64,000 nucleotides of DNA from an uncultured Terriglobales bacterium. Its GTDB lineage: Bacteria; Acidobacteriota; Terriglobia; Terriglobales; Acidobacteriaceae. The translations under genes were made by a program, and so were the position numbers. The notes below the pieces were generated by a model. That model worked only from the letters and a program-made list of their open reading frames with translations. It had not been told where the DNA came from and made no database searches. The stretch spans positions 497-64,496 of the forward strand of contig CATPBJ010000100.1 in assembly GCA_955652395.1 (NCBI GenBank), in the 5' to 3' direction. Below, in pieces: positions 4,754 through 52,904 of this stretch. Each line of letters starts with the position of its first letter. Position 1 is the stretch's first letter.

Positions 4754-6145
4754 CTAAATCGCCGGGCAAGCGCCGCGCTTGATGAACTCACCCTGTCCGC
4801 CGCGGCCAAAGAACTTGTCGCCTTCGACCAGGACACGTCCTCGGGACAGCACGACGTCCGGCATTCCCGTTACCTTTATACCTTCGAACATCGAATAATC
4901 CACACGCATATGATGGGTCTTGGCGCTGATGGTGTGCTCGCGCTTGGGGTCAAAGATGACCAGGTCGGCGTCGCTGCCGACTGCGACCGTGCCCTTGCGG
5001 GGATAGAGACCGAAAAGTTTGGCCGGGGTGGTCGAGACCAGTTCGACGAAGCGATTTACGCCGAAGCGTCCTTGCGCGACCCCACCCGAGAACACCAGGC
5101 TCATGCGATGCTCGATGCCGGGGCCGCCGTTGGGAATCTTAGTGAAGTCACCAATTCCCATTTCCTTCTGTTCCTTGTAACAAAACGGACAATGGTCGGT
5201 TGAGACTACCTGCAGATGGTCGTGCGTCAGCCCCTTCCACAATTTCTCCTGATGCCACTTTTCCCGCAGTGGCGGAGTGAAAACATACTTGGCGCCTTCA
5301 AATCCGGGCGCGTCCATGTTTTCGAGCGAGAGGTAAAGATATTGGGGACAGGTCTCGGCATAGACGGGCAGGCCGCGATCACGGGCCTCGCGAACTTTCT
5401 CCAGAGCATCGTTGCAACTGAGATGCACGATATAAACCGGCGAACCTGCCATTTCTGCCAGAGCGATGGCGCGAGACGTGGCTTCGGCCTCGGCGGTGGT
5501 CGGACGGGTGAGCGCGTGGTATTTGGGAGCGGTCTTGCCTTCGGCCAGGGCCTGCTTGACTATCACGTCAATGGCTCCTCCGTTTTCCGCATGCATGCAG
5601 ACCATGGCTCCGGCGTTGGCTGAAGTACGCATCGCCTTGAAGATGCTGGCATCGTCGAGCATGAACACACCCGGGTAGGCCATGAAGAGCTTGAAACTGC
5701 TGATGCCTTCGCGTACCAGTTGAGGCATTTCGGCCAGCTGCGCATCGGGGAGGTCGGTGATGATGCAGTGGAATCCGTAATCGGCAACCGCTTTGGAGGA
5801 CGCCTTCTGCATCCAGGCGTCGAAGGCGGTGCGCAGGGACTGGCCTTTGTACTGGATGGCAAAGTCGATCAGCGTGGTGGTGCCGCCGAAGGCGGCGGCG
5901 CGAGTGCCAGTTTCAAAATCGTCGGCGCTGGTGGTGCCTCCGAATGGCATATCGAGGTGGGTGTGCACATCGATTCCGCCGGGGAACACATACTTGCCTG
6001 CAGCGTCAATCAGGCGCTGGGCATTTTCGCGAGGCAGGCTGCTGCCGAGCGCGACCACTCTGCCGTTTTCGATCGCAACATCGGCCTGACAAGTGTCTGC
6101 AGCCGTGACCACGGTGCCGCCGGTAATGATGGTATCGAACCCCAT
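4754..6145 (-). CDS. hydA: dihydropyrimidinase / D-hydantoinase
   Basis: 463 aa. It shows the amidohydrolase metal motif GGIDVHTHLD and family-typical segments (FKLFMAY carbamylated-Lys region, VHLS, STDHCPF). Confidence 0.92.
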   Translation of the reverse strand: MGFDTIITGGTVVTAADTCQADVAIENGRVVALGSSLPRENAQRLIDAAGKYVFPGGIDVHTHLDMPFGGTTSADDFETGTRAAAFGGTTTLIDFAIQYKGQSLRTAFDAWMQKASSKAVADYGFHCIITDLPDAQLAEMPQLVREGISSFKLFMAYPGVFMLDDASIFKAMRTSANAGAMVCMHAENGGAIDVIVKQALAEGKTAPKYHALTRPTTAEAEATSRAIALAEMAGSPVYIVHLSCNDALEKVREARDRGLPVYAETCPQYLYLSLENMDAPGFEGAKYVFTPPLREKWHQEKLWKGLTHDHLQVVSTDHCPFCYKEQKEMGIGDFTKIPNGGPGIEHRMSLVFSGGVAQGRFGVNRFVELVSTTPAKLFGLYPRKGTVAVGSDADLVIFDPKREHTISAKTHHMRVDYSMFEGIKVTGMPDVVLSRGRVLVEGDKFFGRGGQGEFIKRGACPAI

Positions 6146-6259
6146 TGGCTATTCCCCTGTGCTGCGAGAGTCCCGTCTGCCGGACAGAAGCGTGATGTAT
6201 TCTATTCTACAAACTGAGGAACTCATTTTTGCCCTCCACGGGCCGCCAAAGAGAAGAGC

Positions 6260-7258
6260 ATGAAGTTCGGCATCACCCTCAAACCCGATATTTCAGTCGA
6301 GCGCATCGTCGCGCTGACCCAGCAGGCGGAAGGTGCGGGATTCGAATACGGCTGGATTTTCGACTCTCACGTGCTGTGGAAGGAGCCCTACCCGCTGCTT
6401 ACCTTGATGGCAAACGCGACGCGCAGCATGCGGCTGGGGCCGTGCGTGACCAATCCGGCGGTACGCGACCTTACCGTTACCGCCAGTCTTTTTGCGACTC
6501 TAAACCTGATTTCTGGCGGACGCATGGAGCTGGGTATCGGGCGTGGCGACAGCTCGCGGCGAGTGTTGGGCAAGAAGCCCGTCACTCCGGCGGAGTTGGA
6601 GCGCGCTGTCGTGACCTTTCGCGAACTCACCGCGGGACACGAAGTGCAATACGAAGGTCAGCCTGCCCGGCTCACCTGGGCAACCGGCTCTCCTCCGGTC
6701 TGGATCGCGGGTTATGGACCGAAGGTTTTGAGCCTGGCGGGGCGCATCGCGGATGGAGTGATCCTGCAATTTGCCGATCCCGACCTAATTGCCTGGTGCC
6801 TGGGTTTCGTCCGGCAAGGCGCTGCGGAAGCGGGTCGCGATCCAAAGTCGGTTGCAGTCATGGCAGCGGCCCCGGTGTGGGTTTCCGATGACCTTACGCT
6901 GGCGCGGCAACGGGTGAGGTGGTTTCCCGCGCTGGTTTCAAATCACGTGGTCGATCTGATCTCGCGCTACAAACCTGGGGAGCTGCCGGTGTCGCTGACT
7001 TCCTACGTGCAGGACCGCGCCGGATACGATTACCAGCATCATGCCGAGGTGGGCAGCGACAACGCAACCTTCGTTAGCGACGAAGTTGTCGACCGATTCT
7101 GCCTGCTGGGTTCGGTTGAGGCCCACCGTCAGAAACTGCGGAGGCTGGCGGAAGTGGGCGTAACGCAGTTCAATATTTATCTCATGTGCGGCGAGGAAGA
7201 GCAGACTTTGGAGAGTTACAAAAGGGAAGTGCTGCCGGGGTTTCTTGGAGTAGCTTAA
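6260..7258 (+). CDS. luciferase-like monooxygenase (LLM) class flavin/F420-dependent oxidoreductase
   Basis: 332 aa with MKFGITL...FEYGWIFDSH...RLGPCVTNP...GGRMELGIGRGDS, the typical LLM TIM-barrel N-terminal pattern. It is divergent from hydA. Confidence 0.8.
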   Translation: MKFGITLKPDISVERIVALTQQAEGAGFEYGWIFDSHVLWKEPYPLLTLMANATRSMRLGPCVTNPAVRDLTVTASLFATLNLISGGRMELGIGRGDSSRRVLGKKPVTPAELERAVVTFRELTAGHEVQYEGQPARLTWATGSPPVWIAGYGPKVLSLAGRIADGVILQFADPDLIAWCLGFVRQGAAEAGRDPKSVAVMAAAPVWVSDDLTLARQRVRWFPALVSNHVVDLISRYKPGELPVSLTSYVQDRAGYDYQHHAEVGSDNATFVSDEVVDRFCLLGSVEAHRQKLRRLAEVGVTQFNIYLMCGEEEQTLESYKREVLPGFLGVA

Positions 7259-47053: not shown

Positions 47054-48280
47054 CTACGTGTAGCGCGATGCCTGCATCTGCTGTTGTGTCCGCGACGGCA
47101 GATTACGCTCACAGCAAGGTCCGAGCGGGATGGGCGCACCGTGGGGACAAGTGCGGGGATGACCGAGGAAGCTGCAAATCTTGTCGGTAGCTTCGGGCGA
47201 GAGAATGTGCTCGAATTTGCAGGCCTGCTGCTCGATCTCTGATTCGCTGTCGAGAGCCAGGCTGTCGGTGAAAAGCCGCTCGGCCAGGCGATGGCGGCGG
47301 ATGATGTCGGCGGCGCGCAAGCGGCCGCGCGGGGTGAATTCCACGATCATGCTGCCGTCGCCTGTGGACACTCCGGAAGGCTTGAGCGCATCGTGGCACG
47401 GGTTCACGAACGGCTTGTGATTGTGGACTTCCGGCGGATGCGGTCGGGTGGTGAGCAGACCCAGAGCAGTCATCTTCTCGACCGCGATACTTACCGGCAG
47501 AGCGCCATGAACTTCCATGCGCTCGATTTCGGCAATCTCTCCGTGCTCCTCGACCGCCCAGAGTTCTTCGAGGACTTCGTCGAACTGCTCCTCGTCAGCC
47601 ATAGCGAAGACTTCCTGATCGGCAATCTTGCCGTGATGCAATTCAATGCGGCGATCCGCCAGGCGGGCGACGACCGGGTCGTGGGTGACCATCACGATGG
47701 TGCGTCCCTGGCGGTGCAGCTCGCGCAGCAGGCGTAGGACAATCTCTTCGTTGACCGCGTCCAGATTCCCGGTGGGCTCATCGGCCAGAACAATTTTGGG
47801 GTCATTGATCAGGGCGCGAGCGATGCAAACCCGTTGCTGCTCCCCGCCGGAGAGATGGGCCGGTAGATGCCAAGCACGGTCTTTCAATCCGACGTGGGCC
47901 AGCGCCGCGAGTGCTTCCGGCTCGTCGGTCATGCTGTGAAAGTATTGCGCCAGCATGACGTTTTCGAGCGCGGTGAGGTAGGGAATCAGGTGGAATTGCT
48001 GAAAGATAAAGCCGACTTTTTCCGCCCTGGCGCGGTTCAAGTCCTGCGTGGAAATCCTGGCGACGTCTTCGCCGTCGAGCCAGATTTCACCTGAAGCGGG
48101 ACGATCGAGGCATCCAATCAGGTTGACCAGGGTGGACTTCCCGGAACCGGAGGGGCCCATAACGGCCAGCCACTCGCCGGGTGCAACCTCGAGAGAAACG
48201 TCGTCCAGGGCACGAATGATACCGGCATTGGTCTCGGCCTGGGCCGGATAAAGGCGGGTGACATGGCTGAGCTTGATCAT
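47054..48280 (-). CDS. ABC transporter ATP-binding protein (MacB/LolD-like) fused to a DtxR/MntR-family metal-dependent regulator module
   Basis: 408 aa. The N-terminal 225 aa carry Walker A GPSGSGKST, signature LSGGEQQR, Walker B ILADEPTGNLD and H-loop VTHD. The C-terminal 180 aa carry a wHTH-like EVLEELWAVEEHGE...MTALGLL, then IRRHRLAERLFTD...ACKFEHILSPE...GHPRTCPHGAPIP (the DtxR metal-binding/dimerisation signature). Confidence 0.85.
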   Translation of the reverse strand: MIKLSHVTRLYPAQAETNAGIIRALDDVSLEVAPGEWLAVMGPSGSGKSTLVNLIGCLDRPASGEIWLDGEDVARISTQDLNRARAEKVGFIFQQFHLIPYLTALENVMLAQYFHSMTDEPEALAALAHVGLKDRAWHLPAHLSGGEQQRVCIARALINDPKIVLADEPTGNLDAVNEEIVLRLLRELHRQGRTIVMVTHDPVVARLADRRIELHHGKIADQEVFAMADEEQFDEVLEELWAVEEHGEIAEIERMEVHGALPVSIAVEKMTALGLLTTRPHPPEVHNHKPFVNPCHDALKPSGVSTGDGSMIVEFTPRGRLRAADIIRRHRLAERLFTDSLALDSESEIEQQACKFEHILSPEATDKICSFLGHPRTCPHGAPIPLGPCCERNLPSRTQQQMQASRYT

Positions 48281-48281
48281 G

Positions 48282-49430
48282 TCATTCTCCCCTCAGGATG
48301 TTAGCAGGTTGAACCCGCCGGAGCAGCGATATTGGCACAATCGCGGCGATGAGGGCGATAACTATCCCGCCTACCAGAACCACCGGCAGGACGCCGACGC
48401 GCGGACTGACTGGGGCGTGAAAATTCACGCGACCGATCCAGATGGCGACTCCAACTCCGATGGCAAAGCCCAAGGTCGAGCCAATCGCGCCCAGGGCTGC
48501 GGCTTCGGCGGCGAAGAACCCTTGCAGCATCTTGCCGGAAGCTCCCAAGGCCTTCATGAGGGCAAAGTCGCGACGTCGATCCGAGACCCATCCCATTAGG
48601 GTGGAGAGCACACAAACCGCGGCGGTGAAAATGATGAGAATGGCAGCGACGAGGAGTGTGGTCCGCATTTTACCCAACACGTTAGCCTCGCCCTCCGTGA
48701 CCTGCCGCACGGGGTGGACGTCGGCTGCGGGAAGGGCGCGTCCAAGGCGCTGGACGGTGGCGATCACCTCTTCCGGCGCGCCCGAGGCTGATATCTCAAC
48801 CGTCGAATACGGTAAATGGGTCCAGTCGGTGAAATCGCCGAGCGATACATAGACACGACTATCTTCGGCGGCTCCAGTCTTTAGTACGCCGACTGGATTC
48901 AGCCGAACCGTGCGACCCTGAAAGCTTAGGTCGAACGGCCTGCCCGGCGGGCCGATAACACTGACGGCGCGAGTGCCAATGAGTGCATCGTGGAACGCTT
49001 TCGGCCAACGAGTCACTGACCACCAGGTGCGGTCCAGCTTCTGCACCCGATCGAGATCCGTTCCGGCGACGACCACCGAACGCCCATCGGGGGTGCGAGC
49101 CACGGCATACGCGAAGGGAACAGCGATGCCGCTGCCTAACACCGATCCGATTGTCTCCAGAGTATCGGCCGGCAGGCTCTGTCCGTCCTTAACGACTACC
49201 ACGACGTTGGCGCCATACTTGCGAAATTCGCGACGCAGCTTGGCCTGGACGTCCAAGGAGAGGTTCAGCATCGCTGTGGCCACGGCAGCAGCCACCACCA
49301 TCGCCAGCAGGGCCGAGGCGGCGCGGCCACGCCGCAGGACGGCGGCACGCACCAGCATGCGCAGGAACATCGAGGTGTGGGGCGCAGCCGAGCGGCGCCG
49401 GGCGACGTGGCTGGTGTCAACCGAGTTCAC
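48282..49430 (-). CDS. ABC transporter permease, FtsX/MacB-like
   Basis: 382 aa. TM1 is followed by a large periplasmic domain and three C-terminal TMs (FtsX fold). The GTG start overlaps the upstream stop (GTGA); the alternative is Met21 at 49370. Confidence 0.85.
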   Translation of the reverse strand: MNSVDTSHVARRRSAAPHTSMFLRMLVRAAVLRRGRAASALLAMVVAAAVATAMLNLSLDVQAKLRREFRKYGANVVVVVKDGQSLPADTLETIGSVLGSGIAVPFAYAVARTPDGRSVVVAGTDLDRVQKLDRTWWSVTRWPKAFHDALIGTRAVSVIGPPGRPFDLSFQGRTVRLNPVGVLKTGAAEDSRVYVSLGDFTDWTHLPYSTVEISASGAPEEVIATVQRLGRALPAADVHPVRQVTEGEANVLGKMRTTLLVAAILIIFTAAVCVLSTLMGWVSDRRRDFALMKALGASGKMLQGFFAAEAAALGAIGSTLGFAIGVGVAIWIGRVNFHAPVSPRVGVLPVVLVGGIVIALIAAIVPISLLRRVQPANILRGE

Positions 49431-50683
49431 ACATCACCTCGCAGCGCGTACACCGGATCAAATTTTACCGCCCGCCGGATCGCAGCGGCACTGCCGGCAA
49501 ACGTCACCAGCACGGCGATGGTCAGAATGACGGGCAAGAGCACAGGCTGGACGGCAATCTGCGAGTCGAAGATGGAATGTCCGATCTGGCGAGCCAGGAG
49601 CGCGCCTCCGCCGAAGCCTACCGCTCCGGCCAGCAAGGCCAGCAGCGTACCCTCGGCAAAAAACAATGCGGCCACCGCCAGATTGCCGGCGCCCAGAGCT
49701 TTCATCAACCCAACTTCGCTGCGCCGTTCAATAACCGCCGTCGCCATGGAAGCTGAAACTGCCAGCGCGGAGGCCAGCAATGCCGCGAGCGTAATCAGGA
49801 GCATGAGTCCCTGAATGCGGGAGAGTACGGTGCCCTCGTTCTGCGCCACCTGACGAATCTGCTCGGCGTGCGAGTGCGGGATGGCCTCTTGCAACTGAAA
49901 TGCGATGGACTGCGCATAAGGAGAGCAGTACCAGCGGTCGTACATCGCAGGGGATAGGCTTTTCGGATCGCGGCGGGCAAAAGCATCCTCGGGCTTGGTC
50001 ACGGCGCTGACATAGATGCGGCGTACGGCACCGGGCTTGCCGAGCATCTGCTGCGCCAGGGCAAGCGGAGCAACGATCTGATCATCTTCGGCTCCACCGG
50101 TCGAGAGAATCCCTGAAATCCGGCGCGACCTGCCCGCGATCTCAATTTCCTGGCCAGGCGACTTGTTGAGCCTTGCCGCCAGATGATCGCCGAGGAGAAC
50201 GTCCTCCGAGTGATCGTCGGGCCAGGTACCCTGCACTTTCCACCAGGGATGCGTGGTACGAACGCCGGTGACGAAATCCTGCTGTCCGAATACCACACGC
50301 CGGGAGAAGTATGTTCCAAGCAGAGTCAGTTTCTTTTCATCGCCCAGTGTGACGCTAACCGGCAACATGGGAGAGAAGCCTACGATGTTGTTGCGCCAGA
50401 ACATGCCTTTGATCTTCGGCAGATCCGCTTCGTTCAGGTACGCGCCGTCGCTGGGTGGCTTCAGATTCACGCCGCCAATCTCGACGTCCAGCGTGTCTTC
50501 CTGGGGAGTGACAATCAGGTTGGCGCCGTAGGTACGCAACTCGCGGCTGATCTTGTCGCCGATATCTGTGGCGACGGCGATCATGGCGGTGGCCACGCCC
50601 ACGCCCAGCATGATGGCGACCCCGGCCAGCAGCTTGCGCCGCTTCTGCCGCCGGAAGGACTCATAAAGTAGGCGCAAGAACAT
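49427..50683 (-). CDS. ABC transporter permease, FtsX/MacB-like
   Basis: 418 aa with the same architecture (MFLRLLYESFRRQKRRKLLAG..., periplasmic domain, C-terminal FtsX TMs). Confidence 0.85.
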   Translation of the reverse strand: MFLRLLYESFRRQKRRKLLAGVAIMLGVGVATAMIAVATDIGDKISRELRTYGANLIVTPQEDTLDVEIGGVNLKPPSDGAYLNEADLPKIKGMFWRNNIVGFSPMLPVSVTLGDEKKLTLLGTYFSRRVVFGQQDFVTGVRTTHPWWKVQGTWPDDHSEDVLLGDHLAARLNKSPGQEIEIAGRSRRISGILSTGGAEDDQIVAPLALAQQMLGKPGAVRRIYVSAVTKPEDAFARRDPKSLSPAMYDRWYCSPYAQSIAFQLQEAIPHSHAEQIRQVAQNEGTVLSRIQGLMLLITLAALLASALAVSASMATAVIERRSEVGLMKALGAGNLAVAALFFAEGTLLALLAGAVGFGGGALLARQIGHSIFDSQIAVQPVLLPVILTIAVLVTFAGSAAAIRRAVKFDPVYALRGDV

Positions 50684-50687
50684 GGGT

Positions 50688-51935
50688 TTATGGTTGGAAA
50701 ATGTGGGTGCCCGCCGCGATGTCGGCCTCCCGAATGATGACCGCGTCGGCGGTCTGTTCAGCGCGCAGCGGAATCGGGTTGCAGCCGCCCGTCATGCCCA
50801 CTGATTGCCCGTTGATCGGCGCGGCACAGTTCTTACAAACCACGCCGTTCGGCCCTTTGTAAAAGCCTACAGGTCCGCAAATCTGGCAAGCGTCAAATAC
50901 CGTGGCAACTTTGCCGTCGGTCTTCTTGTAGAGCCAGAAGCGAACCCCAACCCCATTTTCTCTGGCCTCGAAGCGATGAAGATCGCCATCAGCGACCTGA
51001 GCCAACGGAATACTCACCTGCCCATTCTGGAAGGTCACTTCGGTCGCGGGCGATAGCGCGCTTACGCTCTTGGCGTAGATGAATTCTGCGGTCACCATCA
51101 GGATGAACAAGAACGAACTGGCATAGACCGAAACCATCCACAGACGTTCGCGGCGGGCACTCCACAGAGCCTTGCGGCGCTCGGCCGGAGAATCGGGAAG
51201 GGCAGCGGGCTGCCGGCGCTTGACCTCAAACAACACCATCAGCGCGGCCAGAGCCACGATCGTGACGAAAAAGAACAAGTCGTTGCGTACGATGGGGCCG
51301 ATCAGGGCCATCTCCTCGCGCGAGGAGGGAAGCACGCCGTTTTCAGAAAGCTCGTGCAGGCCGGAGATGATTAACTGCGCCGCCACAAAGAACAGAATGG
51401 CGGTCGTGACCCGGAAGAATTTCTGCAGATTGATGCGCACGCTGCCCTTGACGAACATCACGCCAAAGACGATGGCCACGATGACGCCCGACAAGGTGCC
51501 GAGGAAGCTGAGCAGCGCCGTGGAGTTCAGCGATACCGCTCCCAGGATGAGGACGGTTTCCACACCCTCGCGCAGAACCATCAGAAAGACGAATAGAAAG
51601 AGACCAAATCTGGCATTGCGCCCGGCCAGGAGGCTCACTTTGCCTTCAATCTGTCCCTTGAGCGCGCGTCCCGTCTTCATCATGAAAACAATCATGGTGA
51701 CGACGAAGAAGGCGGCCATCAGCATGATCCAGCCTTCGAAGATGTCCTGATTCCATTGCGTCCGCGAAAGCAGGATGGCGATCCCGATGCTGCCGACAAA
51801 TGCGGCAACCAGGGCGGTGAAAACGGATTTGCGCAGTTCAGGCCGCTCAATCTTGGTCAGATAGGCCAGGGTGATGCCAACGATGAGCGCGGCTTCGACC
51901 CCCTCGCGCAAAGTTATGATGAATGCTTGCAACAT
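50688..51935 (-). CDS. FTR1/EfeU-type iron permease fused to a DUF2318-like Cys-rich domain
   Basis: 415 aa from the ATG at 51935. It has two REGVE motifs (TLREGVEAALIVG, VLREGVETVLILG) in a 6-7 TM N-terminal part. The C-terminal roughly 130 aa carry CQICG...CKNCAAP...GGCNPIP. The ORF-track start at 51971 is only a TTG inside the upstream palindrome. Confidence 0.8.
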   Translation of the reverse strand: MLQAFIITLREGVEAALIVGITLAYLTKIERPELRKSVFTALVAAFVGSIGIAILLSRTQWNQDIFEGWIMLMAAFFVVTMIVFMMKTGRALKGQIEGKVSLLAGRNARFGLFLFVFLMVLREGVETVLILGAVSLNSTALLSFLGTLSGVIVAIVFGVMFVKGSVRINLQKFFRVTTAILFFVAAQLIISGLHELSENGVLPSSREEMALIGPIVRNDLFFFVTIVALAALMVLFEVKRRQPAALPDSPAERRKALWSARRERLWMVSVYASSFLFILMVTAEFIYAKSVSALSPATEVTFQNGQVSIPLAQVADGDLHRFEARENGVGVRFWLYKKTDGKVATVFDACQICGPVGFYKGPNGVVCKNCAAPINGQSVGMTGGCNPIPLRAEQTADAVIIREADIAAGTHIFQP

Positions 51936-51953: not shown

Positions 51954-51972
51954 ATTGCAACTGAGTTGCAAT
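51954..51972. promoter_or_regulatory. 19-bp perfect palindrome, candidate metalloregulator operator
   Basis: ATTGCAAC-TGA-GTTGCAAT has 8-bp perfect arms. It lies 19-37 nt upstream of the FTR1 ATG and downstream of the candidate -10 box. Confidence 0.45.
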
Positions 51973-51997: not shown

Positions 51998-52027
51998 AGA
52001 ATAGTCTCCCCCTAGTGCAGGCGTCAA
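51998..52027 (-). promoter_or_regulatory. candidate sigma-70 promoter of the FTR1-ABC operon
   Basis: On the minus strand it reads TTGACG-18 nt-TATTCT. Confidence 0.35.
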
Positions 52028-52217: not shown

Positions 52218-52904
52218 CTACAGCTGCTTCAAAAATTGCTTTACTTCTTCCAGTTGCGGGAACAGTTTTTCTTCGGCCTGAAATTCCGCGGAGTGAACGC
52301 ACCTGCGGCTGCCTCGCAACCTTACCGGATACTTCAGATGCAGCATCTCGTGATACACGATGTACTCGACTGCAAAGCGGGGAACCCGGGGGTGGTCAAA
52401 GATTCGACTGACGACGATGGCATTGTGCGCAGGATCGTAATGGCCAAGGCTATTGCGGGTACAGTCGCGGCTCCAGGTCATTTGCGGGCGAGCCAGCAGG
52501 CCATGAAAAAACCTTAGGTTGAGATCCTCAAAAACGACTTTCAGGTCATAACTGTGGCCTTGGGCCGAATGGAGACGCTTGCGTCCGCGCATTTGGCGCA
52601 CCAGGTGAGCCTTCCGGCTGATGTTGCGGCTGGAAACGTAACGGTGGTAGCGGCTTGCGGCGTCGCGGTCAACCGGCTTGCGGTACATCTTGGCTACAAG
52701 GATGTGGGCGATGGCTTGCAAGACGGGTTCGGGGGCGCCTTCCAGCAGGTCTGAGAGCCGCACCAGCAGCCTGCCTTCGCGCATCCGGATGGTGTTCTTG
52801 ATGCTGGTGAAAGCAAAGAATTCAACCCTCAGCTCGGGGATGTCTGCATTGGGGCGGATCTCGCGGCAGGTTTCCTGGAAGATGTGGAGAAGGCTATGCC
52901 TCAC
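52218..52904 (-). CDS. YgjP/DUF45-like zinc metallohydrolase (HExxH)
   Basis: 228 aa with C-terminal YHEMLHLKYP...VHSAEFQAEEKLFP, matching the DUF45 pattern HExxH...HS..F...P. Confidence 0.65.
   Translation of the reverse strand: MRHSLLHIFQETCREIRPNADIPELRVEFFAFTSIKNTIRMREGRLLVRLSDLLEGAPEPVLQAIAHILVAKMYRKPVDRDAASRYHRYVSSRNISRKAHLVRQMRGRKRLHSAQGHSYDLKVVFEDLNLRFFHGLLARPQMTWSRDCTRNSLGHYDPAHNAIVVSRIFDHPRVPRFAVEYIVYHEMLHLKYPVRLRGSRRCVHSAEFQAEEKLFPQLEEVKQFLKQL

Follow-up and report, generated by a model that had tools for sequence, protein, structure and literature searches.

The C2 domain of MetN and the TOBE-type domains of ModC and MalK are dimerizing modules that follow the nucleotide-binding domain (NBD) of an ATP-binding cassette (ABC) ATPase, respond to a ligand in the cytoplasm that is related to the substrate carried, and exert feedback on the transporter by trans-inhibition. 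Another arrangement is found in YtgC-YtgR (CT069) of Chlamydia trachomatis, where an ABC permease carries a DtxR-family repressor that is released by cleavage and autoregulates (PMC5599777), and fusions of this type have been reported in 11 phyla (PMC5599777). In Campylobacter jejuni, the FTR1/P19-associated system, which includes ABC permeases and an ATPase, is needed for iron acquisition, and the substrates of those permeases and of the ATPase were stated to be unknown (Liu et al., 2018; PMC6083913). Here we describe a gene that brings these themes together, in which a single open reading frame (ORF) joins an ABC ATPase to a DtxR-like module. It lies in a 64,000-nucleotide stretch of DNA from an uncultured Terriglobales bacterium (GCA_955652395.1, contig CATPBJ010000100.1, positions 497 to 64,496), the whole of which we refer to as the window, and its features are collected in Table 1.

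In a Pfam scan of the window protein, ABC_tran was matched at residues 25–170 (E 9e-36) and Fe_dep_repr_C (PF02742) at residues 316–385 (E 1e-25, exceeding the gathering score), which agrees with the original prediction that an ordinary MacB/LolD-type NBD at residues 1–225 is followed by a C-terminal half of the DtxR family. PF02742 was likewise matched by all 25 of the 25 family members scanned. The best NCBIfam matches of the N-terminal 225 amino acids (aa) are MacB, LolD and FtsE, and the motifs of the cassette are complete: Walker A (GPSGSGKS), the Q-loop (Q94/95), the LSGGEQQR signature, Walker B (D167) with the catalytic E168, and the H-loop (H200). All of these are invariant among homologues. 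In Foldseek comparisons the NBD matched the structures of MJ0796, MacB, LolD and YbbA with target-normalized template modeling (TM) scores of 0.87–0.90. These motifs and this fold, together with two adjacent FtsX/MacB_PCD genes, place the fusion protein among the type VII ABC ATPases.

A scan of one genome per GTDB species gave at least 577 matches to the module, of which we examined the best 80. All 80 come from metagenome-assembled genomes of Terriglobia, among them Acidobacteriaceae, Candidatus Sulfotelmatobacter, Candidatus Acidiferrales and others. A single uninterrupted frame with both Walker A and the ABC signature was found in 75 of the 80 species genomes; contig ends truncate two of the remaining five loci, and the other three are apparently frameshifted. 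A search with the C-terminal module alone returned 974 relatives, the best 120 of which are at least 74% identical and many of which carry both PF00005 and PF02742. Two further clades of fusions emerged, one of ~360-aa proteins annotated to Candidatus Polarisedimenticolia/Acidobacteriota (clade 2) and one of 401-aa proteins annotated to Candidatus Acidoferrum (clade 3), with more than 115 of the 120 listed clusters having both domains in each case. Most other relatives found in an exhaustive search of 1.84 billion representatives are ordinary DtxR-type proteins of 210–250 aa. The fusion is thus confirmed as real and widespread in Acidobacteriota. The domain combination had been put forward as one not known to be described; we found no description of an ATPase-DtxR fusion in the literature searched, coverage of which was partial and so is not proof of absence, but the combination itself is far from rare, being present as hundreds of clusters in three acidobacterial clades under generic annotation. 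One metagenomic protein (P0177, 428 aa) has transketolase-like domains followed by Fe_dep_repr_C and FeoA; a chimera or a frameshift in the gene call is the probable explanation.

Because a Foldseek search with the full-length model returned NBD matches only, the C-terminal module was modeled separately. The AlphaFold2 (AF2) model of the isolated module (predicted local distance difference test score, pLDDT, 86.8; predicted TM score, pTM, 0.81) matched the two-domain structures of IdeR, DtxR and DR2539 over their whole length with target-normalized TM scores of 0.73–0.78, as for example 2isy_A, with a root-mean-square deviation of 2.9 Å. A family profile built from 25 fused C-terminal modules is colinear with residues 12–133 of DtxR/IdeR, 7–131 of SloR and 6–114 of MntR, and its alignment of the winged-helix-like domain covers DtxR/IdeR residues 12–75. 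A phmmer search against solved structures aligned the C-terminal ~90 aa to IdeR/DtxR residues ~48–135 (E 2e-15). As modeled and aligned, the module is a homologue of the whole winged helix-turn-helix (wHTH) and dimerization core of DtxR, without the third SH3/FeoA domain.

The dimerization domain retains a recognizable metal site. In alignments with IdeR and DtxR, the DtxR ligands His79, Glu83, Cys102, Glu105 and His106 have their counterparts in H330, E334, C354, E357 and H358, so that all five ligands named in the original prediction can be located in the window protein. E334, C354, E357 and H358 are invariant in all clades, as are L237, E238 and E245 of helix 1 and M270 of helix 3. The position of DtxR M10 is occupied by E235 (Glu or His among family members), and conservation of D234/E235 is 90% or more; E235 resembles the carboxylate of Mn-type members of the family, such as MntR. 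With C354, E357 and H358 invariant and E235 at the M10 position, the primary (activating) site is present. The ancillary site is not a family-wide feature, since the His79 equivalent varies between H, Q and R, the H98 position is Glu, and the SH3 domain that bears E170 and Q173 is absent. H330 and E334 are nevertheless present in the window protein, and the proposed His79 ligand therefore stands for this protein and not for the family.

Beyond the canonical ligands, the module has a Cys/His motif near its C terminus, in which C369, H374, C378, H380, C389 and C390 are invariant in all clades. This CPHG..IP.G.CC motif is not found in canonical DtxR and is common to the nearest stand-alone relatives of the module, which contain FeoA. 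In the Candidatus Acidoferrum clade (L004, positions 5665–6870; P0151; and 120 relatives), the linker that joins the NBD to helix 1 is rich in Cys and His, and H232, C240, C248 and C249 of its segment H-x7-H-G-P-x-H-P-L-x-C-P-x5-D-C-C are conserved at 100%. In the window's clade, a 30-aa insertion occupies the tip of the wing, and its H281, H286, H288, C295 and H296 are 95–100% conserved. Judging from the alignments, conserved Cys/His elements beside the module have been added independently in two clades, in the wing and in the NBD-helix 1 linker.

The module had been described as a complete DtxR protein, and this holds for the wHTH and dimerization fold as a whole; the SH3 domain is absent, though, and the parts that would read DNA are much altered. 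PF01325, the DtxR DNA-binding domain, gave no Pfam match in the window protein even at E ≤ 10 and reached E 0.035 in only two of 25 family members; weak matches to AAA_assoc_C and HTH_27 were seen in two of the 25. The winged-helix-like elements comprise helix 1 (residues 228–245), a vestigial helix 2 (~252–254) that is cut down to one turn in the AF2 model, helix 3 (263–272) and a beta-hairpin (276–280/311–315). In the profile alignment, the positions of IdeR R27, R29, R33, R50 and R60 pair with gaps or with acidic or neutral consensus residues. The net charge of the domain is −13, against about −3, −4 and +1 for approximate reference sequences of DtxR, IdeR and MntR. As the stand-alone relatives are likewise acidic (median net charge −7), charge alone is a weak argument against DNA binding. 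The wing tip is an insertion hotspot in the family alignment, and the insertion of the window's clade, where model confidence is low, is missing from clade 2. Across 76 Terriglobia sequences, column identity is 82% in the wing insertion, 84% in the winged-helix-like part and 87% in the NBD; conserved about as well as the NBD, the winged-helix-like part must have some function.

The fusion gene stands last in an FTR1 iron-permease operon, as had been noted from the sequence and as gene order and Pfam agree. The operon's genes overlap or stand 1–4 nucleotides (nt) apart, the ATG of the fusion ORF lying 1 nt past the stop codon of the upstream FtsX gene, and the order FTR1-FtrD, FtsX, FtsX, NBD-DtxR is shared by 81 of the 86 loci, the divergent L004 being one of them. 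The ORF start called by the program for the FTR1 gene (TTG at 51971) is too long; homologues of 415–416 aa fit the ATG at 51935, which is likely the true start. The FtrD-like domain, which is ferredoxin-like, has the spacing CxxC-x13-CxxC-x14-C, the DUF2318 motif of C. jejuni 1651 (PMC6083913). P19 and thioredoxin genes are absent from the window's FTR1 operon. Given the shared DUF2318 motif and gene set, we regard the operon as a compact version of the FTR1/P19-associated system. The SprT-like gene upstream probably lies outside the operon, since a promoter region separates them.

Table 1. Features of the fusion gene and its surroundings, in window coordinates.
Feature	Position	Strand	Basis and remarks
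SprT-like metallopeptidase gene	52218–52904	−	Upstream, same strand; syntenic in 49/86 loci
Sigma-70-like promoter TTGACG-18-TATTCT	51998–52027	−	Consensus match only
19-bp 9-1-9 dyad ATTGCAACT-N-AGTTGCAAT, presumed operator	51954–51972	.	Between promoter-like site and FTR1 start
FTR1 iron permease fused to FtrD-like (DUF2318) domain	50688–51935	−	Pfam; 415 aa
FtsX-type permease 1	49427–50683	−	MacB_PCD and FtsX; 4-nt overlap with permease 2; synteny
FtsX-type permease 2	48282–49430	−	FtsX domain and weak MacB_PCD match; synteny
Whole fusion gene, ABC ATPase and DtxR-like module	47054–48280	−	408 aa plus stop codon
NBD, type VII (MacB/LolD/FtsE-like), residues 1–225	47606–48280	−	Pfam, NCBIfam, Foldseek; complete catalytic motifs
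Candidate internal start	47600–47617	−	Shine-Dalgarno (SD)-like CAGGAAG (47611–47617), 8 nt upstream of M227 ATG (47600–47602)
Diverged acidic winged-helix-like domain, residues 227–316	47333–47602	−	Homologous to DtxR domain 1; profile alignment, AF2, Foldseek
Wing-tip insertion, residues 281–310 (30 aa), clade-specific	47351–47440	−	Candidate extra metal-binding loop
Fe_dep_repr_C dimerization/metal-binding domain, residues 316–385	47126–47335	−	Pfam, alignments with PDB structures
Cys/His motif, residues 369–390	47111–47176	−	C369-x4-H374-P-x2-C378-P-H380-G-x2-I-P-x-G-x-C389-C390
C-terminal tail, residues 391–408	47057–47110	−	Unconserved, 26% column identity

Having placed the module on the motor of an iron-uptake operon, we consider a metal-gated ATPase under post-translational feedback to be the best-supported reading, although we hold it tentatively, with a confidence a little short of even. 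This is the first of the two mechanisms originally proposed, in which the NBD is gated by metal in the manner of the MetN and ModC domains. Under this reading, the fusion protein would be the motor of a compact FTR1 iron-uptake machine that also comprises the FTR1-DUF2318 permease and the two FtsX/MacB-type permeases. The module would keep the fold, the dimerization domain and the activating metal site of DtxR while its DNA-reading hardware has been remodeled. Two copies would pair beneath the NBD dimer, and each may bind cytoplasmic Fe2+ or a similar divalent metal at helix 1 (D234/E235) and at C354, E357 and H358. In DtxR-family proteins, the residue that completes the activating metal site comes from helix 1. 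Here, the tether is only ~3 residues long, with the last NBD strand at residues 218–224 and helix 1 starting at 228 in the AF2 secondary structure, so a helix 1 fixed by metal onto the dimerization domain would reposition the NBDs, shift their spacing or orientation and thereby switch ATP hydrolysis. The most plausible direction would be that the ATPase is off when the cell is iron replete, which we prefer on the analogy with MetN/ModC trans-inhibition and in view of the toxicity of excess Fe2+. The analysis shows the architecture and fold, the conservation of the fusion and of its ligands, and the link to the operon; dimerization, which metal is bound, how it is coupled to the ATPase and in which direction it acts are inferences. 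The broader evolutionary claim, that a DtxR fold has been repurposed from a DNA-binding repressor to an allosteric Fe2+ gate on a type VII ATPase, is one we put forward with slightly more reserve still.

We favor the gate because the tether is tight, helix 1 supplies a residue of the metal site, the features for DNA binding are eroded and loops with candidate metal ligands have been added. The obligate nature of the fusion, the conserved iron-uptake operon and the retained primary site are also in its favor, as are the constancy of helix 3 across two different operators (below), the extra Cys/His ligands and the conservation of the wHTH-like part. Several points weigh on the other side. YtgC-YtgR, which is the closest precedent described for a DtxR-ABC subunit fusion, does act as a genuine repressor. 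The trans-inhibition domains known so far belong to importers (types I and II) and not to type VII mechanotransmitters. Helix 3 is 95–100% conserved within the window's clade and keeps some IdeR-like residues (PVS, K269-M270, G274-L-L), and such conservation is also expected of a DNA-reading helix; in clade 2, helix 3 is more basic (RMRARG). Finally, even the direction of the ATPase regulation is a guess, because Liu et al. (2018; PMC6083913) describe the function of the ABC part of such systems as unknown.

The alternative that fares best is that the module is an autoregulator like YtgC-YtgR, one that would repress the FTR1 operon, or a wider regulon, in a metal-dependent manner. Taking together the forms in which it might act, whether membrane-tethered, proteolytically released or, in the window's clade, as a 182-aa product started at M227, we think this doubtful. 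Its appeal lies in the whole two-domain DtxR fold with an activating metal site, in the conserved helix 3 with its IdeR-like residues and its more basic counterpart in clade 2, and in the precedent of YtgR, which is cut from the YtgC permease and represses its operon in an Fe2+-dependent manner (PMC5599777). A candidate target also exists. The palindrome noted in the original prediction exists as a perfect 8-1-8 repeat, for which 0.24 chance matches would be expected, within a 9-1-9 dyad that has the geometry of DtxR/Fur operators and lies between promoter and start codon. The promoter-like element TTGACGC...TATTCT/TATCCT recurs in loci L001–L003, and locus L004 of clade 3 has a variant of the dyad, AGTTGCAAAT-C-ATTTACAACT.

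Comparison of the operators argues against the module as their reader. Across loci L007–L086 and the window, the ATTGCAACT-N-AGTTGCAAT dyad occurs in eight loci including the window, ~45 nt upstream of the FTR1 start, while 62 Terriglobia loci have at the same position a near-identical, AT-rich dyad resembling a Fur box, TTGAAATTGAAATTCATTTTCAA. By our own count, the 19-bp core of the latter matches the classical Fur box at 14 of 19 positions. If the module were to read the operator, helix 3 would be expected to change along with it; helix 3 is unchanged, the helix 2-helix 3 segment MEVHGALPVSIAVEKM being identical in the 62 loci with the Fur-box-like dyad and the eight with the TTGCAAC dyad. 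The Fur-like box in 62 loci suggests instead that, in most genomes, the FTR1 operon is under the transcriptional control of a separate, global regulator. The proposal that the protein represses its own operon through the palindrome is weakened accordingly, as these 62 loci belong to close relatives. The missing PF01325 match, the vestigial helix 2, the loss of most basic backbone-contact positions, the strong acidity of the domain and the conserved 30-aa insertion at the wing tip also stand against an autorepressor, as does an NBD tether of only ~3 residues in two clades. Overall, the indirect evidence leans against metal-dependent, sequence-specific DNA binding by the module as a free homodimer, given the acidic domain, the lost basic contacts, the wing insertion and the lack of co-variation with the operator.

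Other candidate sites were considered. A near-copy of the palindrome at 5412–5428 was rejected as a second operator as it lies inside a 463-aa ORF, and a match at 49889 lies inside an FtsX gene and was likewise set aside. The Fur-box-like dyad had no match elsewhere in the window within three mismatches. A CRP/FNR-like dyad, TGTGATGCAAATCACA, is found upstream of the FTR1 promoter-like element in L002 (~1540–1556) and L003 (~1558–1574); L001 has it in degenerate form, and no obvious copy is seen in the window.

Release of the module by internal initiation is one form that the autorepressor could take. The M227 codon is ATG in 73 of 80 loci and the SD-like motif is present in 72 of 80; among 102 conserved two-fold codons, Q222 and E223, which form the motif, come sixth and second for conservation of the synonymous third position, in a test that was post hoc. 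For the window's clade, these observations hint at internal initiation at M227, from which a free module of 182 aa would result. The equivalent of M227 is missing from clades 2 and 3, so internal initiation cannot be a family-wide release mechanism.

A further alternative is that the module accepts iron, lying at the cytoplasmic face of the complex and taking Fe2+ from FTR1 to hand it on to acceptors in the cell, or else serves as a structural Zn or Fe-S dimerization clamp for the NBDs. The invariant C369, H374, C378, H380, C389 and C390 and the clade-specific His/Cys loops would suit such a role, and the nearest stand-alone relatives of the module carry FeoA and are encoded directly downstream of feoB in both cases where this could be seen (L087, 5001–5660; L089, 5001–5678), with no separate feoA visible. 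This stand-alone DtxR subfamily may be the FeoA partner of FeoB, and the adjacency of FeoA-bearing relatives to feoB without a separate feoA suggests that the module subfamily works physically with iron transporters. We nevertheless find a hand-off module or clamp improbable. The conserved residues form the very regulatory site through which DtxR-family sensors are activated, and we know of no chaperone role for the DtxR fold. The FeoB linkage, moreover, is anecdotal, the upstream gene having been visible in two of five loci, and would be equally expected of an ordinary regulator beside its target. The last alternative, that an assembly or frameshift error joined two separate genes, as the original prediction feared, is almost certainly wrong: some database entries do list the C-terminal module as a separate protein of 182–212 aa (P0001, P0038 and P0075), but these come from one error-prone assembly series in which neighboring genes are fragmented too, and they start inside the NBD or contain frameshifts, whereas the single frame recurs in the species genomes counted above and in hundreds of short-read contigs.

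If the metal gate is real, this would be the first ABC motor with a regulatory domain that senses metal, and the first case in the MacB/FtsX class of a control akin to trans-inhibition. The C-terminal regulatory domains of ABC proteins would then extend to a further fold, class of ligand and type of transporter. For metalloregulation, it would provide a natural case in which evolution has led a DtxR module away from DNA binding, with the possible twist in Terriglobales that the same gene may also make a free sensor from an internal start. A sensor on the ATPase would argue that the motor activity of the ABC part of FTR1/P19-type systems is tied to the iron status of the cytoplasm. Should the module bind DNA after all, it would join YtgC-YtgR as the second kind, independent of the first, of DtxR repressor tethered to a transporter. 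Members of the family are abundant in uncultured Acidobacteriota of soil and peat (Terriglobales, Candidatus Sulfotelmatobacter, Candidatus Acidoferrum and Candidatus Polarisedimenticolia), which makes the family relevant to the cycling of iron there.

The closest sequence relatives of the module are the stand-alone Fe_dep_repr_C and FeoA proteins, which share its acidic EE.LE.LW..E.G helix 1, the missing PF01325 match and the CPHG..CC motif, and which differ in being free proteins with a C-terminal FeoA/SH3 domain and no N-terminal NBD. With DtxR, IdeR and MntR the module shares colinear wHTH and dimerization domains, PF02742 and conserved C102, E105, H106 and E83 positions. Unlike them, it is fused, its helix 2 is truncated, the basic contacts are lost, the wing has an insertion, M10 is replaced by Glu and the CPHG...CC motif has been added.

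The operon resembles the FTR1-P19 system of C. jejuni (cj1658-1665/CJJ81176_1649-1656; fetMP-flp in Yersinia) in having FTR1, DUF2318, two ABC permeases and one ATPase, the motif of the C. jejuni DUF2318 (FtrD-like) membrane protein being CxxC-x13-CxxC-x14/15-C. It differs from that system in that FTR1 and DUF2318 are fused, P19 and thioredoxins are not in the operon, and the ATPase bears the DtxR module. As in MetN, ModC and MalK, the extra domain lies directly C-terminal to the NBD. Its fold is the helical one of DtxR and not ACT/NIL or TOBE, its proposed ligand is a metal ion, and its host is a type VII system and not a type I importer; since the fold is DtxR-like, the relation to these proteins is best regarded as an analogy of mechanism and not as membership.

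A conceptual precedent that the original prediction does not mention exists in the YtgC-YtgR permease-DtxR fusion (PMC5599777). Like YtgC-YtgR, the protein described here carries a DtxR-family module with conserved metal ligands at the C terminus of a metal-uptake ABC subunit, inside the transporter operon. In YtgC-YtgR, however, the partner is the permease of a TroC-like importer, whereas here the permeases are encoded by separate genes and the module is joined to the ATPase, a cytoplasmic subunit, of a type VII (FtsX/MacB) system. YtgR is also a demonstrated DNA-binding repressor, while the wHTH here is strongly diverged, acidic and tethered by ~3 residues. A regulatory domain on an ABC subunit and a transporter-DtxR fusion are thus of a known kind; what is apparently new is the type VII NBD as the partner, the remodeled wHTH and the extra Cys/His elements.

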